From positions 1 through 31,275 of IMG/VR virus record IMGVR_UViG_3300047557_001954: DNA of 31,275 nucleotides; one strand, given 5' to 3'. The translations under genes were made by a program, and so were the position numbers. This document shows, in pieces, positions 18,781-25,811 of this stretch. Source of the stretch: a virus (taxonomy: Duplodnaviria > Caudoviricetes). How positions within the stretch are numbered: position 1 is the stretch's first letter; the number at the start of each line of letters is the position of its first letter. The notes under the pieces were generated by a model. That model worked only from the letters and a program-made list of their open reading frames with translations, was not told the DNA's origin and ran no database searches.

Positions 18781-21306
18781 GTGGGCATTTTTGACTTTCT
18801 GAAAAAGGATAAATGGCGCTATGTTATGTCTGGAAATCTGGATCGGCCGGTGTGGACAACTCAAAAAGATAAGCAATTTATCAGCGAGGGTTATAACCGC
18901 GTTGTGTGGGTGTATGCTTGTGTAAGCGCAATTTCTGGCGCAGTGTCAAGCGTTCCTTGGTTGTTATATCGTAAAGGTCGCGGCGGTCGGTTAATTGAAA
19001 TTACAGATCATCCGATTTTAACCATGCTAAATCAAAGAGCTAACCCTTATATGTCGGGGAAAGACTTTTTAGATTATTGGGCTACCTATTTGGCTATAGA
19101 GGGTAAATTCTACGCTGAATATAGCAATCCAAACGCGCCAGCGGCACTATATCCTTTATATCCACACTATATGTATCCGATTCCACACCGAACACAATTT
19201 ATAGGTGGATACGAATACAGGCTGGATTCACCAATTTATTATGAGCCGCAGGAAATACTTTGGTCTAAATTTAATGATCCTTTAGACGTATATCAGGGAC
19301 AGTCACCGATTAGAGCATTAAGTCGGACAATCGACACCGAAAATGAAGCGGTCGACTGGAATAAATCGACACTGCAAAATGCAGGGGTTCCGGCCGGTGT
19401 ATTCCAGATTCAGAATCCGTCTCCAGAATTACAGCAAACGTTGCGCGAAGAATGGCAAAAACGATATGCTGGCGGATCGAATGCGCGTATTCCATTGATT
19501 CTCAATTCGGATAAGGCGACTTATCAGCAGATAGGCTTAAGCGCTTTGGACATGGACTTTCTAAACCAACGCAAGGTTAACCGGATCGAAATTTGTTCTG
19601 CCTTTGGTGTTCCGTCTCAAATTGTAGGCGATCCGGAAGGTCAGACCTACAGTAATTACGGCGAAGCGCAAAAGGCATTCTGGGAAAATACCGTTATATC
19701 GAGATATCTTGACCATATTAAAGATAAGCTGGAGCAAGACCTTTTGCCTAGATACGCTGACAATTTGGAATTGCGTTATGACCTTTCCAATGTCGGAGCG
19801 CTTAAAGAGAATGAAGACAATAAAGCAAAACGTATTGATATGCTATGGAAATCCGGATTGATTAAAAGAAATGAAGGCCGTTATGCACTGGATTACGAAG
19901 ACGATCCGGTCAGCGGCAATCTATATTTCAATGAGTTATCTATCGGAGCCACAGCGCAAGCAGTAACCGCGCCGCTTCCGACACAGCCAGTTATGCCGGA
20001 ACAAGAACAGCCAGAGATGGAAGATGAACTAGAAGAAGTCGAGCCGGAAGAAATCGAACTTGAAGACGGTGACGAGGAAGAAGAAGCCACCGAAATCCAG
20101 ATTGAAATTGCAAAAAAAAAAGAGCCTACTAACTTTCCGGTAGCCGGTCAAGATGAAACGATTACACTTGCCAATTCTCAATATCAATTATTCCCTTTGG
20201 ACTATGCCGAAGACTTGCGTAATAACTGGCCCGATATTTGGGCAAAAGGTGGAAATATTCAAGGTAATGACACCTACCGAGTTATTAAACGAGTAAGGGA
20301 CGAAGGGAAAAGCGCTGATGAATTAACAGCCAACGATATCGATATCATCCGGATGCGTGAAGCATGGAGCGCCAGACACTTTCGAGATCATCGGCTTGCT
20401 GGTGTAATTGCACAGGTTAAATGGCACATGGTCGGAAGTCGTGGACTGGATCACATGAAAGCAGTTATTCAGGAAGCGAAGGACAAGCAAAAAAAAGCAG
20501 TAGATATGAAGCCGGACGAGGAAAAAGCATACTGGAAACGAATTGATGATGAGCGCGAAAAAATCATTGTAAAGGTTCAGCGAGAGATTAAAAAATACTT
20601 CGGCGAACAAAACGATGATTTGCAAAAGGCCATTCGTGGAAAGTCGCCTACAGAAGCGGCGGAAATCGTTGACATTGTGGTCGAAGAGACAAGCGCAGAC
20701 CTAAGGAACATTTTAACGGCGCTTTATATGTCCACGATACAGAAATTTGGATTGCAGACCTTTGACGAATTGCAAGATAAGAAAATGATGACAAAAAGGT
20801 TTGAAGGTTATACGGACGCACTGCTTTACTGGATCACCTTAAATGTCGGGAACGCGGTTGTCATGATTGATGATACAACGAAGCGCGAAATTAAAGATAT
20901 CATCATTTCTGGAATTGCCGCAGGTCTGGCCATTGGAAAAGCTGGTCAGCCAGATACGATTGCGGATAATATTGAAAAGTTATATCTGGATCAAATTATT
21001 CCCAATAGGTCAGAGGTTATTGCACGAACGGAAACAATGACCGCCGCGTCAAAAGGAAGTTTAGAAGGCGCACAACAGGCGGAACAACAAGGTGCGAGAA
21101 TCCGCAAAATCTGGATATCCACACCGGACGATGACACCAGAGATACGCACGCGGATATGCGCGGCAAAGACCCGATCCCACTTGAAGCACTTTTTAGGGT
21201 AGGCCAATCATCTGGTGAATTCCCTGCTGATCCGCAGTTATCGGCGCGTGAAAGAATAAATTGCAGATGCACAATCGGATATAGAAGAATTCGGGATATC
21301 CAATAG
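18781..21306 (+). CDS. Portal protein (HK97-like) fused to an unknown domain and a MuF head-morphogenesis domain
   Basis: Portal motifs VYACVSAI, GQSPI, NAGVPAG, EICSAFGVP, YSN in about aa 1-385; acidic linker; C-terminal IARTET...WIST.D..TR.TH...INCRC (MuF). Confidence 0.9.
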   Translation: MGIFDFLKKDKWRYVMSGNLDRPVWTTQKDKQFISEGYNRVVWVYACVSAISGAVSSVPWLLYRKGRGGRLIEITDHPILTMLNQRANPYMSGKDFLDYWATYLAIEGKFYAEYSNPNAPAALYPLYPHYMYPIPHRTQFIGGYEYRLDSPIYYEPQEILWSKFNDPLDVYQGQSPIRALSRTIDTENEAVDWNKSTLQNAGVPAGVFQIQNPSPELQQTLREEWQKRYAGGSNARIPLILNSDKATYQQIGLSALDMDFLNQRKVNRIEICSAFGVPSQIVGDPEGQTYSNYGEAQKAFWENTVISRYLDHIKDKLEQDLLPRYADNLELRYDLSNVGALKENEDNKAKRIDMLWKSGLIKRNEGRYALDYEDDPVSGNLYFNELSIGATAQAVTAPLPTQPVMPEQEQPEMEDELEEVEPEEIELEDGDEEEEATEIQIEIAKKKEPTNFPVAGQDETITLANSQYQLFPLDYAEDLRNNWPDIWAKGGNIQGNDTYRVIKRVRDEGKSADELTANDIDIIRMREAWSARHFRDHRLAGVIAQVKWHMVGSRGLDHMKAVIQEAKDKQKKAVDMKPDEEKAYWKRIDDEREKIIVKVQREIKKYFGEQNDDLQKAIRGKSPTEAAEIVDIVVEETSADLRNILTALYMSTIQKFGLQTFDELQDKKMMTKRFEGYTDALLYWITLNVGNAVVMIDDTTKREIKDIIISGIAAGLAIGKAGQPDTIADNIEKLYLDQIIPNRSEVIARTETMTAASKGSLEGAQQAEQQGARIRKIWISTPDDDTRDTHADMRGKDPIPLEALFRVGQSSGEFPADPQLSARERINCRCTIGYRRIRDIQ

Positions 21307-21317
21307 GAGGTGTAAAG

Positions 21318-21941
21318 ATGCAATATAAAGCGAGTAGATTTGAATTAAAAGCGGCTGGCGATAATACGATTGAAGGCTACGCGGCTTACTTCGGGAATGT
21401 CGATTCATATGGCGATATTATCGAAAATGGCGCTTTCACGAAAACGCTAAAAGAGAACAGCGGACGCGTAAAGGTTTTATGGCAGCACGATACCAGCGAG
21501 CCAATCGGGAAGCCGATTCACATGGAACAGGATTCCAAAGGATTATATATCAAAGCGAAAATTTCAATGACCGACACAGGCCGAAAGGCTATGGAATTGA
21601 TGCGCGATGGTGTCATTGATGAGATGAGCATAGGTTATGATATAATCAAAGACGAGTACAAAGCTAAAAATCGTATGCTAAAAGAGTTGCGCCTGTGGGA
21701 GTTTTCGCCGGTTACATTTGCGGCAAACGAGAAAGCGCGGATTACTTCTGCAAAGTCTCTAAGCGAACTTTTATATGATGTAAAACACGCTGATATTGGC
21801 GAGATTAAAAACGCAATTCAAAAATTAAATGAGTTAATCAAACAGCTTGAGCCGGAAGAATCCACTCAAAAAGTTGATGATGAAGAACAAAAAGAAGTGC
21901 AAGCAATCCTGCAAATGATTCGAGGATTCAAAAATGCCTAG
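21318..21941 (+). CDS. Prohead protease (HK97 family)
   Basis: IEGYAAYFGNVDSYGD, LWQHD, MSIGY, LWEFSPVTFAAN. Confidence 0.95.
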   Translation: MQYKASRFELKAAGDNTIEGYAAYFGNVDSYGDIIENGAFTKTLKENSGRVKVLWQHDTSEPIGKPIHMEQDSKGLYIKAKISMTDTGRKAMELMRDGVIDEMSIGYDIIKDEYKAKNRMLKELRLWEFSPVTFAANEKARITSAKSLSELLYDVKHADIGEIKNAIQKLNELIKQLEPEESTQKVDDEEQKEVQAILQMIRGFKNA

Positions 21942-23316
21942 TCCGCGATCCGGAGAAAGCAGAGACGAATTTATTGATCGTTGCATGGGTGATGCTGAAG
22001 CAGTAGCGGACTTTCCGGACAATGGCCAAAGGTTCGCAGTATGTAACGCTTTTTATGATGAAGGACAAAAAACAAAACTTGAAGGAGTGACAAAGATGGA
22101 TGCAATTAAAGAAATCCAACAAGCAATTGGCGAAGCGCTTTCCAATGGCGCAAGCAAGCACGAATTGAAATCCCTTGAAGATCGACTGATGGAGCGCCTT
22201 AATAATCGCGCAGACCAATCTGCAGATGTCGATGCACTTTTTAGTAAATTCCAAACGGAACTTGAAAAAACAAAATCGGAGATTTTTGAGCAATCCAAAA
22301 AATCCGCATTTGTAGCTCCAGAGAAAAAAGAAACATTTGGAGAATTCTTGGTAAAAGCACGCCGCGGTGATTCCGGCCTGCGCGAAATGACGCGTAAAGC
22401 GCTTGGTGAATCCGTAGGTGTAGACGGAGGTTTCTTGGTTCCGGAGCAATTCATGAACGAAGTAGCACAGGTTCGTCTTGAGCGTTCCGTAGTGCGAGGA
22501 AGCGGCGCACGCGTTATCAATATGAACAGTAACATTTTGAAAATGCCAGCATTAAATGTGGCAAGTAATGCCGCAGGTTCTATCTTTGGTGGTGTTGCCG
22601 CTTACTGGACAGGCGAAGCAGAAACAAAAACACCGAGCGCTCCGAAATTCAAACAGATTACGCTTGAAGCTAATAAGCTGATTGGTTACGTTGAATCATC
22701 GGATGAATTGAACAATGACGCTATCGTTTCAATGGGCGGATTGCTTCAAGACCTGTTCGCACAAACAATTGCGTTTGAAGAAGATGTGGCTTTCTTGACT
22801 GGTAACGGTGTAGGGAAGCCGCTTGGTATCCTGAATGCACCTGCTACGATTGCAGAGACGCGCACGACTGCAAGCCGCGTAGGTACGGTTGACCTTGTTA
22901 AAATGCTGGCACGTTCTTACGGTTCTCTTTCTTCGAAAGTATGGGTTATCAATCAATCCGTACTGCCGGAAATCTATAAGCTGAAAGACGAAAACAGCAA
23001 TTATATCTTATTGCCAGGCTCTAATAGCAATATCGCAGGCGCTCTGCCGCAAACTATCTATGGTATTCCGGTTATCGTATCGGAAAAACTTCCGGCGCTG
23101 GGAACTTCCGGTGATATCTTGCTTGCTGATATGTCCTATTATCTGATCGGTGACCGTCAACAATTGACTGTGGATGAATCCATTCATGTGAAATTCCAGA
23201 CGGATGAAAAAAGCTGGCGATTTGTTAGCCGCGTAGCCGGTCAGCCATGGATTGATTCTGCAATTACACCACGCGCAGGCGGTTCTACTCTTTCGCCGTT
23301 CGTAAAATTGACTTAA
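21934..23316 (+). CDS. Major capsid protein, HK97 fold (two in-frame starts, 21934 and 22096)
   Basis: DGGFLVPEQF, AAYWTGE, FLTGNGVGKPLGIL, TIYGIPV; strong RBS AAGGAG before ATG 22096 and GAGGA before ATG 21934. Confidence 0.95.
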   Translation: MPSPRSGESRDEFIDRCMGDAEAVADFPDNGQRFAVCNAFYDEGQKTKLEGVTKMDAIKEIQQAIGEALSNGASKHELKSLEDRLMERLNNRADQSADVDALFSKFQTELEKTKSEIFEQSKKSAFVAPEKKETFGEFLVKARRGDSGLREMTRKALGESVGVDGGFLVPEQFMNEVAQVRLERSVVRGSGARVINMNSNILKMPALNVASNAAGSIFGGVAAYWTGEAETKTPSAPKFKQITLEANKLIGYVESSDELNNDAIVSMGGLLQDLFAQTIAFEEDVAFLTGNGVGKPLGILNAPATIAETRTTASRVGTVDLVKMLARSYGSLSSKVWVINQSVLPEIYKLKDENSNYILLPGSNSNIAGALPQTIYGIPVIVSEKLPALGTSGDILLADMSYYLIGDRQQLTVDESIHVKFQTDEKSWRFVSRVAGQPWIDSAITPRAGGSTLSPFVKLT

Positions 23317-23334: not shown

Positions 23335-23727
23335 ATGCCAAACGCAAAAATCACTGAACAAGTAACAATTTCAGAGGCAATTTATCCGCAGGTGTCTGCT
23401 GGTATTTCCTCCAGTACGCTTGTTGATATGAGTCAATTCGGACGTTATGCCGCAGTCGCTTCACATGGTACAGCAACAACAGCTTCGACATTTGTTGTGA
23501 AACTGTATGAATCAAGCGCGGCAACGTGGGCTGGTGCGGTCGCTACTCTGCTTTCCACTACAACTGTATCTGTGGCGACAGCCGCAACAAATGTTACAAC
23601 GGTTGACGCTAACGTTACAGACCTGACAGAAGGTAACCGTTACATCGGGGTTTACTTGACGAAAGTAGATACTGCTTCGAGTATCAGCGCGGTTCACGTA
23701 CGCGGTAATGATCGTTATCAAGGTTAA
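23335..23727 (+). CDS. Probable capsid decoration/cement protein, Ser/Thr rich
   Basis: Directly after the capsid gene with strong RBS AAGGAGG; beta-rich; RYIGVYL motif. Confidence 0.65.
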   Translation: MPNAKITEQVTISEAIYPQVSAGISSSTLVDMSQFGRYAAVASHGTATTASTFVVKLYESSAATWAGAVATLLSTTTVSVATAATNVTTVDANVTDLTEGNRYIGVYLTKVDTASSISAVHVRGNDRYQG

Positions 23728-23736
23728 TAATTAGAG

Positions 23737-23841
23737 CCGCGATTCGCGCGGATCGGGGAATAGAAGACGTTCGACAAGGTGAAGCCTGTATCACTTTTCC
23801 CCGATTAATTACAGGAAACACGAAAACAGGAGCGTGTGAAA
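23737..23841 (+). promoter_or_regulatory. Structured cis-regulatory RNA candidate (pseudoknot) in the glycosyltransferase leader
   Basis: Stems ATCGGGGAA/TTCCCCGAT and AGGTGA/TCACTT; loop CCTGTA complementary to TACAGG and to ACAGG overlapping the SD. Confidence 0.5.
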
Positions 23842-24501
23842 ATGGAATTGAAGCCAATTAAAAAAGTGATGGTTGGTGTACCGATTAACCGGCCGATTGA
23901 ATTTTTTTGCTTTGAATCATTTGTAAAACTAGCGAATAGAAATAGTGAAATAGAATTGGCTTTTTGTATGACGCAGAATAGCCTAGTATATGATGCACGC
24001 GAGACAATCGCGCAGAAATTTCTAGAATCAGAAGCGGATGCGCTAATGTTTATTGATTCTGACATGACTTTCCATTCTGGATCAATTGAATATTTAGCTA
24101 GGCATAATAAGCCGTTCGTTACGGCTAAAGCATTTAAGCGTGTCCATCCATATCAGCCATGCTTTTATAGTAAATTGGAGCCTGCCGAAAATAACGAATG
24201 GTATATGGAAAGTCCGGTAGAGTATGGCGAAGGGTTGCTTCGGATCGAAGGCGCTGGAATGGCCTGTGCATTAATTCGTAGGGAAGCCTTTGAAGCGATT
24301 GAGCCGCCATATTTTTTCCCTAAAGTCGGACTAGGTGAAGACCTTTCATTTTGTCTGAAATTAAAAGATGCTGGTGTCGAAATGTTTCTGGACACGACTA
24401 TTCAATTCGGACATTTGGCACAGGTTGCAATCATGGAATCACATTTCAAAGAAGTCTATGAAGCAAACAAACATAACGCGAAAAAATTATATGTCGATTG
24501 A
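23842..24501 (+). CDS. GT-A fold (GT2-like) glycosyltransferase 1
   Basis: VMVGVP, ARETIA..FL, LMFIDSD (DxD), GAGMACALIRR, GEDLSFC, GH. Confidence 0.85.
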   Translation: MELKPIKKVMVGVPINRPIEFFCFESFVKLANRNSEIELAFCMTQNSLVYDARETIAQKFLESEADALMFIDSDMTFHSGSIEYLARHNKPFVTAKAFKRVHPYQPCFYSKLEPAENNEWYMESPVEYGEGLLRIEGAGMACALIRREAFEAIEPPYFFPKVGLGEDLSFCLKLKDAGVEMFLDTTIQFGHLAQVAIMESHFKEVYEANKHNAKKLYVD

Positions 24502-24517: not shown

Positions 24518-25255
24518 ATGAAGATATTATTAGGCGCACCGGTACGACAGGATCACACGACATTTTATAAATATTTGAAAGCAATCAATCAACTGAAGAC
24601 CGAAGGGTTTAAGGTTGATTTATTTTTTATCCTGCACAATTCACCGAGATTAAAAAGGTTTCTCAAGCCAGATCAATATATTGAGTTTGAAAGTGAACAT
24701 GAATATATAAGAGACGATCAAACGCACCACTGGACGAACGAGAATTTGAAAGACGTTACGAAGATGAAAAACGCTTTGCTGAAATATACAATCGCCAATA
24801 ATTATGATTACTTTTTTCTTGTTGATTCAGATTTGATTTTGCATCCTGAAACGTTAATCAAATTATTAAGCCATAAAAAAGAAATCGTAGCGGAAGTTTT
24901 TTGGACACAGTGGACACCGGAAACAGATGAACAGCCGAATGCGTGGATATTCGATTTTTACGGATTCCGAGCAGATCAGGAATATAACCGATTTAGGGAA
25001 AAGGGATTGCATCGCGTGGGGATGTCGGGCGCTTGTATCCTGATTCATAGATCGGTTATAGAATCCGGTGTGAATTATAGCCCGATTTATAACGTGAGTT
25101 ATTCGTTATGGGAGGATCGCGCTTTCTGCATTCGGGCGGCAGTCGCTGGATATGAAATATGGCTGGATTCACATTATCCGCCGGTTCATTTATACCGGAC
25201 AAAGCCGAATAGACCCGATCAAAACAAAGCGAAACAAAAGCATTTGAGGAAGTAG
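24518..25255 (+). CDS. GT-A fold (GT2-like) glycosyltransferase 2
   Basis: RBS GGAGG before ATG 24518; ILLGAPVRQ, YDYFFLVDSD (DxD), GACILI, EDRAFCIRA, HLYR. Confidence 0.85.
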   Translation: MKILLGAPVRQDHTTFYKYLKAINQLKTEGFKVDLFFILHNSPRLKRFLKPDQYIEFESEHEYIRDDQTHHWTNENLKDVTKMKNALLKYTIANNYDYFFLVDSDLILHPETLIKLLSHKKEIVAEVFWTQWTPETDEQPNAWIFDFYGFRADQEYNRFREKGLHRVGMSGACILIHRSVIESGVNYSPIYNVSYSLWEDRAFCIRAAVAGYEIWLDSHYPPVHLYRTKPNRPDQNKAKQKHLRK

Positions 25256-25265
25256 GCGGAAGGTC

Positions 25266-25811
25266 ATGACAAGAAATAGCATTGAATCGAGATCCTTTGC
25301 ACGAAAGACAATCGAATACGAACACGCAAGGATTCACGAGGGTTATGGATTTGATTGTGATATTGAATTTACTTTATCAACAACAGTACCGAAGTATTAT
25401 CATATTCGGACTGGGACGGATGAGATCCATTTAAAAGATATTGTAATTACGACGAATAAGCCAGAAGTGAAACTGTATTTGTACACAAATCCGACGGTTG
25501 CGTTAAACGGAAGTCCAACACAAGAAACAATTTACAATTCCGATGAAGACAGCAACAACGTTTCATCCATGAGGATTTACAATAATAGTACAGTGACTTC
25601 AGACGGAACAAAACGTAGAGTTTATTATTTATCCGGATCAACCGGAATCGGTCATTCATCTGCAGGCGAAGCGTCTGCATTTGGAGCATGGGAAATTATT
25701 TTGCTACCGAATACAGACTATTTAATCAAGATCATTCGCATAGTTTCAGATGGAGACACAACTGGAGTATTTAAGTTGCGGTTTTATGAAGAAGACGAAA
25801 CGCCAATGTAG
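25266..25811 (+). CDS. Hypothetical protein, probably structural (beta-rich)
   Basis: Sits between the GTs and the head-tail connector; EHARIHEG motif; ILLPNTDYLI. Confidence 0.55.
   Translation: MTRNSIESRSFARKTIEYEHARIHEGYGFDCDIEFTLSTTVPKYYHIRTGTDEIHLKDIVITTNKPEVKLYLYTNPTVALNGSPTQETIYNSDEDSNNVSSMRIYNNSTVTSDGTKRRVYYLSGSTGIGHSSAGEASAFGAWEIILLPNTDYLIKIIRIVSDGDTTGVFKLRFYEEDETPM

Follow-up and report, generated by a model that had tools for sequence, protein, structure and literature searches.

What is a structured untranslated gap doing in the middle of a tightly packed phage late operon, directly in front of two putative glycosyltransferase (GT) genes? The window analysed here is the whole stretch of 31,275 nt, a 31-kb virus record of an HK97-type tailed phage. 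Its late genes run in the order terminase, portal, protease, major capsid protein, a 130-aa protein, a 114-nt gap, GT1, GT2, a 181-aa protein, and then the head-tail and tail genes. The original prediction had singled out this gap as the only large one in the late operon, and this was borne out: among the 16 gaps from the small terminase to the tape measure gene, the runner-up measures 49 nt. The genes around it are as follows.

21934..23316, plus strand: HK97-type major capsid protein gene (Pfam Phage_capsid, E 7.8e-48; PHROG major head protein)
23335..23727, plus strand: putative capsid decoration protein, 130 aa, all-beta, Ser/Thr-rich (27%), with its role proposed from position and fold
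23842..24501, plus strand: GT1, putative GT-A-type glycosyltransferase with a FIDSD motif that is invariant in the alignment (PHROG 12406 glycosyltransferase, E 9.1e-5)
24518..25255, plus strand: GT2, second putative glycosyltransferase with its own Shine-Dalgarno (SD) sequence GGAGGT (Pfam Anp1, E 1.4e-9; Glycos_transf_2, E 8.5e-5)

Pfam and PHROG searches gave no match for the 130-aa protein, and none of its 87 homologues carries an informative name. Its AlphaFold model is all beta (pLDDT 84.7), and its Ser+Thr fraction is 0.27, compared to 0.14 in the capsid protein and 0.31 in the tail tube. Position and fold together suggest a capsid decoration protein, and it is a candidate substrate for glycosylation. 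Invariant STWAG(A/G)VAT-like and Ser/Thr motifs were also observed in this protein. GT1 starts with the ATG at 23842 and has a weak PDB match (E 0.031) to 2c0n, A197, which we take to be a glycosyltransferase of an archaeal virus. The position of GT1 and GT2 suggests that they modify the virion; in mycobacteriophages, phage glycosyltransferases are reported to glycosylate capsids (excerpt of PMC11256854, citing Freeman et al. 2023). A prophage-like locus in Paenibacillus oryzisoli has the same gene order, with a GT1 that is 52% identical, and the phage host is therefore likely to be a member of the Bacillota.

Three neighbouring genes have peculiarities of their own. The capsid reading frame opens (21934-22060) with 42 aa that distant relatives encode 0.7-1.6 kb further upstream, inside another gene; a later Met, near residue 55, may be where the capsid proper begins. 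The 841-aa portal (18781-21306) is a fusion that also comprises an acidic linker, an additional domain and a head morphogenesis domain resembling Mu gpF. The 181-aa gene (PHROG 5335; 25266-25811) is mobile in position, being 3' of GT2 here, before the protease/capsid region in L032-L039, and missing from other loci.

Inside the gap, the elements follow each other in the order P1-UA-P2-GACA-P3-P1', site 1 and finally P4, whose loop contains site 2 and the SD.

23737..23751, plus strand: P0, accessory 5' hairpin CCGCG/CGCGG, seen in the sequence
23752..23805, plus strand: three-way junction core, from covariation and a covariance model of non-GT relatives
23752-60/23797-805, plus strand: P1, ATCGGGGAA/TTCCCCGAT, from sequence and covariation
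23761-62, plus strand: UA linker from P1 to P2, part of the junction core
23763..23772, plus strand: P2 hairpin GAA-GACG-TTC with loop L2, GACG, at 23766-69, from covariation
23773-76, plus strand: GACA linker from P2 to P3, part of the junction core
23777..23796, plus strand: P3 hairpin AGGTGA/TCACTT with the targeting loop L3, AGCCTGTA, at 23783-90, from covariation
23810..23815, plus strand: site 1 (decoy), TACAGG, 6-bp partner of L3, from duplex energy
23818..23837, plus strand: P4 hairpin ACACG/CGTGT, arms 23818-22/23833-37, from the MFE fold
23826-30, plus strand: site 2, ACAGG, in the P4 loop, overlapping the SD
23828-32, plus strand: SD, AGGAG, in the P4 loop, overlapping site 2

The stems, loops, L3 partners and SD hairpin that had been read from the sequence are all present. 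What had been described as a one-sided purine-rich junction, on the other hand, contains a third hairpin, P2, and no part of the leader is more informative than this overlooked hairpin and its self-complementary loop. Folding of the single sequence is only modestly above chance (z -2.26; 5 of 200 shuffles equally good), with pair probabilities of 0.35-0.44 for P2 and P3 of the window copy. The predicted duplex of site 1 has -7.9 kcal/mol with L3 and -4.3 with an anti-SD probe; the corresponding values for site 2 are -7.4 and -9.7. P0 is absent from L023, L024, L054 and a more distant group; judged by this distribution, it is accessory and lies outside the family core.

We compared 40 distinct upstream regions of GT1 homologues (at least 45% identity), 37 of them from loci that contain the 130-aa gene. 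The leader is present in all 37 distinct gaps between the capsid/decoration genes and GT1; 36 of these fit the core pattern and the 37th (L154) was recovered by the covariance model with 33.2 bits. It is absent in front of all three GT1 homologues (51-58% identical) that have no decoration gene upstream. Across 12 close relatives, pairing holds in 96.6% of 348 cells, and 41 changes are double-sided; none of 500 shuffles did as well, and slid controls gave 33-58%. All three P2 pairs are kept in 12 of 12 relatives, two of them with double-sided changes; such changes are also found at four of the six P3 pairs and in P1, which is paired up to the junction. P4 is the weakest helix, with 80% of its cells paired. 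In contigs from four sequencing runs, X1 covers the stretch with no differences but may itself be where this DNA came from, and X4, X5 and X8 contain related strains that do not enter the counts. The original prediction had named covariation among homologous leaders as a check and lack of conservation as an objection, and the covariation found is strong. These alignments show that the leader is a real, conserved, covarying three-way junction.

In the GT loci the element starts 5-24 nt past the upstream stop codon. Two local variants were observed. A partial duplicate of the junction (the P2 arm, with a GCGC loop; ∼85 extra bases) lies 5' of the full element in L008 (663-760), L010 and L028. 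L004, L007, L011, L031 and L144 carry an additional 27-nt hairpin that separates site 1 from P4 while leaving both sites and P4 intact.

Several known folds and functions were considered and rejected. The core of a hammerhead ribozyme has CUGANGA 5' of stem II and GAAA 3' of it; here only UA lies between P1 and P2, P1 is paired up to the junction, and Rfam gave no match. Likenesses to HDV-like, twister and xrRNA folds were dropped on linker order and missing cores. A stimulator of stop-codon readthrough or frameshifting was rejected because the distance from the stop codon to P1 varies (5, 10, 24 nt). Mu-gpT-DE had no Rfam match, and OmrA-B, the best match in the window by Rfam E-value, is a chance match on the minus strand (E 0.71).

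The family to which the junction is related is the int-alpA RNA motif, reportedly credited to Weinberg and colleagues in 2017 and, as the name implies, presumably located between integrase and alpA. It is catalogued as Rfam RF02996 and typed 'Gene; sRNA'; the name int-alpA is absent from the main text of PMC5737381. An Rfam scan had been proposed as a check on the original prediction. It gave no int-alpA match for the window copy, whether the threshold was the gathering cut-off of 35.8 bits or E 10 (on 351 nt), and a family search of the record gave none either. But same-slot relatives exceed that cut-off, namely the GT leaders L008, L041 and L004 (41.4-42.9 bits) and L135 (38.6 bits); the Paenibacillus copy is among those that pass. 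The view that the leader matches no known family was therefore wrong in substance. The int-alpA search gave three matches in 18 same-slot loci (13 with the junction). Across 151 genomes from the order to which G001 belongs, it gave two, one of them above the cut-off. Of the elements in 20 selected family loci, 17 pass.

A covariance model was built on 32 elements from outside the GT leaders, in which 95.8% of 543 cells are paired and 143 changes are double-sided. It scores the window copy at 32.1 bits (E 2.9e-8), as a single copy with nothing else in the window below E 0.06. The same model scores L308, L286 and L292, which pass the Rfam cut-off, at 24-30 bits. That the non-GT model finds the window copy, and that same-slot leaders pass the int-alpA cut-off, argues that the window element is a divergent int-alpA relative, short of formal membership. 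Shared with int-alpA are the three-way junction P1-UA-P2(G..C)-GA(N)AA-P3-(C)U-P1' and, in the consensus, a CC-containing L3 and a downstream AAGGG; the window copy has the UA and GA(N)AA linkers, with P2 and P3 each opened by G-Y. It differs in its one-base J3/1 instead of CU and in its shorter P2 with loop GACG. The Rfam model ends at site 1, without site 2, P4 and the loop pairings. The context differs as well: the window copy lies between the putative decoration gene and GT1, a capsid-to-glycosyltransferase instead of an integrase-to-alpA position. Members that pass Rfam occur in other contexts too, for example before a tail chaperone in L295. The leader is a variant of a catalogued, functionally unexplained motif.

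For family-wide statistics we used at least 286 parsed elements (150 unique; 73 clusters at 72% identity) among the matches listed by viral-contig pattern scans and protein-led scans, one viral-contig scan listing at least 120 of an estimated 720 or so matches. Elements with a 2-bp P2 or a broken P1 are outside this set, the clusters are not wholly independent of one another, and the junction bases were set by the scan patterns. L2 was analysed in 72 of the 73 clusters, as the scan pattern had fixed L2 in the other one, and the L3 sites in the 69 of 72 with enough downstream sequence. Of 66 called downstream ORFs, 62 were scanned (L144, L278, L202 and L221 were left out). By best match, 16 of the 62 proteins are nucleases (HNH/endonuclease), two are replication initiators or loaders and two are tail assembly chaperones; 23 have no match. 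Single cases are a major tail protein, a terminase, a Rha-like regulator, ParB, a methyltransferase and another glycosyltransferase family.

These neighbours bear directly on the sensing of a nucleotide sugar or a GT protein that had been proposed originally. A metabolite riboswitch for a nucleotide sugar would suit the GT genes downstream, the invariant junction bases UA/GA(N)A and the one independent GT association found (L216, PHROG 2170). But most classified downstream genes are unrelated to sugars and share no common metabolic theme, GT1 homologues in other settings lack the element, and no Rfam riboswitch matched; we consider this reading very improbable. As the fold also precedes nucleases, initiators, chaperones and a terminase, and three GT1 homologues do without it, the proposed sensing of sugar or protein is not supported. 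The element is a portable module, not a sugar sensor.

The element begins behind a stop codon, at a promoter-like -10 box or behind a tRNA. In L269 (526-764) and L279 (278-420) it lies directly 3' of tRNA genes, so that tRNA processing could set its 5' end. Two int-alpA-type elements occur within 0.4-1 kb in L166, L270, L279 and L284, with different L3 codes and different L2 loops; the two L2 of L279 have a TGCA core in common, and copies in the same phage are therefore not always orthogonal in L2. In L182, L229 and L295, the element precedes tail assembly chaperone genes, another step-down point in the late operon; in L182 it directly follows a gene that looks tail-tube-like by eye.

In the GT leaders, the codes of L3 and its partners change together (CCTGT/ACAGG, CCCT/AGGG, CCTG/CAGG), and L3 and both partners take many further codes family-wide. 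Counting Watson-Crick pairs only, 62 of 69 clusters have a best L3 site of 5 bp or more, and 59 of 69 have another of at least 4 bp (permutation mean 24.4, maximum 37). Within position windows, both sites pair with their own L3 over at least 5 bp in 48 of 69 clusters, against a cross rate of 0.149 of 4692. Of these 48, 41 have site 1 beginning 13-18 nt from the junction, and in 34 site 2 comes 12-16 nt after it; site 2 ends 4-12 nt ahead of a start codon in 40 and is SD-like in 41, whereas site 1 is SD-like in 18. This is strong sequence evidence that L3 pairs alternatively with a decoy and with a site overlapping the SD. Of the translational switch predicted originally, the conserved structured leader and the loop with two alternative partners, the second over the SD, are supported; the sensing of a sugar or GT protein is not. 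The two sites are equally strong (25 vs 19, p 0.32), which favours neither direction of the switch. In members with a P1 of 9-11 bp, the linker from P1 to site 1 is 4-7 nt, so short that decoy pairing in cis needs a bent junction.

The other loop, L2, contains a palindrome of at least 4 nt in 53 of 72 clusters, compared to 22.4±3.4 in within-loop shuffles (maximum 35 in 3000); counted by distinct loops, the figures are 27 of 33 and 10.4±2.4. L3, taken as control, has a palindrome in 1 of 72 clusters. Twelve of the 16 possible 4-nt palindrome cores are in use, and in 20 of the 29 loops longer than 4 nt the palindrome is off-axis (shuffles 8.0±2.2; 0 of 20000 as high), from which it follows that the palindromes are not a by-product of inverted repeats. 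The remaining 19 clusters all have a 2-nt palindrome. Nine of them have other CG/GC loops (TCGCT, TAGCA, TCGCC, CGACGA, CGGCGTC), for which we know of no kissing precedent, and ten have GACG. The GACG tetraloop of MoMuSV forms a stable 2-bp kissing homodimer via two C-G pairs (PMC7357161, in part). L2 is GACG in all 17 unique sequences of the window copy's cluster, and GCGC, GGCC or AGCGCA in the other 18 of the 35 unique GT leaders. Across the family, there is strong sequence evidence that self-complementarity of L2 is conserved as a property. A partner of the L2 palindrome in cis is not in excess (19 of 51; cross rate 0.37). The simplest partner is another molecule of the same RNA.

Palindromes could also be read at the DNA level, as an operator for a protein. 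P2 with L2 is indeed a perfect DNA palindrome in 21 of 150 unique elements, but these fall into only 6 of 73 clusters, P2 has G-U pairs in 42 of the 150 elements, and the palindromes are off-axis and embedded in a covarying RNA junction. We think it exceedingly improbable that the element is such an operator.

A single RNA molecule might instead use its two sites by itself. L3 would then alternate between decoy and SD through folding kinetics, through ribosomes ending the upstream gene, or through a P2-binding protein, and the L2 palindromes would serve otherwise. The equal strength of the sites, the position of the element just behind the upstream stop codon in GT loci, and a single-hairpin form that has no L2 (see below) are consistent with this. 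But the 12 different, mostly off-axis palindromic cores would be left unexplained, a P2-binding protein would conserve sequence and not self-complementarity, and many members have no upstream ribosome, as they begin at a promoter-like -10 box or behind a tRNA. On balance we regard a monomeric cis switch as unlikely.

One L3, two equal sites and a self-pairing L2 together suggest a dimer with two L3 heads. We tentatively favour, with confidence a little short of even, an RNA-only mechanism in which the three-way-junction leader caps GT translation: a second copy would dock by L2 and cover the SD with its L3. On a lone transcript, L3 would take the decoy, site 1, which is transcribed first, leaving the SD free and GT1 translated. 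Copies would then accumulate, above all those that end at P1 and hence lack the decoy; in this operon, the abundant capsid-decoration message would provide them as its 3' ends. Kissing between two L2 loops would bring a spare L3 onto site 2 in the loop of P4 and so shut out the ribosome, with the dimer acting as a two-headed repressor on a tandem operator. The outcome would be expression stepped down from capsid to enzyme level.

The supply of decoy-less copies can be related to the U-tracts of the family. Absence of a U-tract, noted in the original prediction, holds for the window copy, where P1 is followed by TTAATT and no terminator-like call was made; it does not hold for its cluster, in which a T6 run directly follows P1 in 9 of 17 unique sequences. 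Taking a GC stem with a U-tract as the mark of an intrinsic terminator, these nine qualify and the window copy does not. U-rich 8-mers after P1, exactly between P1 and site 1, occur in 25% of the 69 clusters compared to 6% of control windows, and the Rfam int-alpA consensus includes a U run. Such runs would supply the decoy-less copies of the dimer model. A distant GT cluster of 17 sequences has no U-tract (longest T run 1-2), and the U-tract is missing in ∼75% of the family. As the window copy and most of the family are without one, the short decoy-less RNA would have to come from processing or breathing.

The same observations raise the possibility of a partial terminator, or a processing or stability element, that closes the capsid-decoration message. 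The stop codon directly preceding the element, the T6 runs, the family-wide U enrichment and the U run in the Rfam consensus speak for it. The window copy without a U-tract speaks against it, and it leaves both the covariation of L3 with two sites and the L2 palindromes unexplained. As a full account it is improbable; it may be a component of the dimer-based cap rather than an alternative.

A related arrangement was observed at four loci, where a P2-less single-hairpin leader lies directly between the capsid gene and a distant GT1 homologue (35-38%).

L079:2590-2695, L080:2900-3006, L131:3895-4002, L388:640-740 (minus strand): single-hairpin leaders in the capsid-to-GT slot

This leader has the loop CTCCGAC, a U-tract and two GTCGGAG copies, the second being the SD; in L079 and L080 a third copy lies within the coding region. 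It has no Rfam match, and its exact pattern was found in only three viral contigs. Its loop-target duplex is about -13.8 kcal/mol compared to -7.4. A stronger duplex in the form without P2 is as expected if L2 kissing makes up for short targets.

For the dimer-based cap, the U-tract, two sites and strong duplex of the single-hairpin form fit docking in trans without a kiss, and the module stands in front of gene types whose expression is usually held low (nucleases, initiators, chaperones). T-even nuclease genes, for example, are held down by hairpins that mask the ribosome-binding site (PMC2988022, in part). Against it, the GACG kiss has only 2 bp, nine clusters have L2 loops for which we know of no kissing precedent, decoy pairing in cis calls for a bent junction, the window copy and most of the family have no U-tract, and the single-hairpin form shows that two-site logic is possible without L2, which makes L2 dispensable.

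Dimerisation could also work in the opposite direction. In a threshold switch of this kind, L3 of the monomer would cover the SD, and an L2-L2 dimer would swap the two L3s onto the partners' site 1, freeing both SDs, so that translation occurs only above a threshold of RNA. The L2 and two-site statistics are equally compatible with this. The short linker from P1 to site 1 (4-7 nt, with a long P1) and the constant start of site 1 suit swapped pairing, and there is a precedent in IsrK, the short isoform of which activates in trans (excerpt of PMC4825925). But U-tracts between P1 and site 1 would yield RNAs with no site 1 to offer, the P2-less form retains both sites, and the constant distance from the junction is also explained by substitutions that shorten P1 without indels. 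We therefore give little credence to dimerisation as an activating step.

The reading in which the dimer covers the SD has partial parallels in known systems. IsrK of Gifsy-1 and the CI RNA of P4 are likewise phage RNAs, a short form of which targets in trans the transcript that reads through the locus of its origin, and CI RNA also pairs with two sites. Both have a fold different from that of the window leader; IsrK activates, and the CI targets, unlike those here, lie up- and downstream and cause termination (parts of PMC4825925). The words 'palindrom', 'dimer' and 'kissing' are absent from the main text of that paper. Retroviral dimer-initiation loops share the GACG tetraloop, which is found in MoMuLV and MoMuSV as in L2 of the window; other family members have 4-6-nt palindromes like the palindromic DIS loops, mostly with extra 5' bases. 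The retroviral loops join two genomes for packaging, whereas L2, with its proposed dimerisation, sits on an mRNA leader beside an anti-SD loop (excerpts of PMC7357161 and PMC516450). The hairpins that sequester ribosome-binding sites of T-even homing endonuclease and late genes have in common with the leader that RNA structure limits translation of nuclease or late genes; they differ in being simple cis hairpins, released by a late promoter, with no decoy and no kissing loop (parts of PMC2988022). In the literature covered, which excluded subscription journals and the 2017 supplement, we found no description of int-alpA function, of a dimerising phage leader (palindromic loop, homodimer, SD), or of phage structured RNAs with HNH genes. 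As regards novelty, the 2017 supplement may already mention the pseudoknot or the palindrome.

Taken beyond this operon, there is in our estimate an even chance that int-alpA-type leaders are widespread RNA-only concentration sensors, in which a palindromic loop picks self and a programmable loop picks the own SD, such that an mRNA would regulate its translation by homodimerising, with no protein or metabolite. On that reading, phages would plug the module in before nucleases, initiators and chaperones, and here before virion glycosyltransferases. A review on RNA dimers, as far as covered here, regards those of riboswitches as largely crystallographic (PMC7357161); a bacterial or phage leader that naturally functions as a dimer would therefore be a new regulatory principle. 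If true, it would also offer a simple explanation of how phages lower expression partway along a long late operon, and would give synthetic biology a programmable part ready for use. The sequence evidence makes control of translation by mRNA self-dimerisation testable with a 95-nt RNA, and the GT context indicates that genes of the structural operon use the module, not only selfish nucleases.
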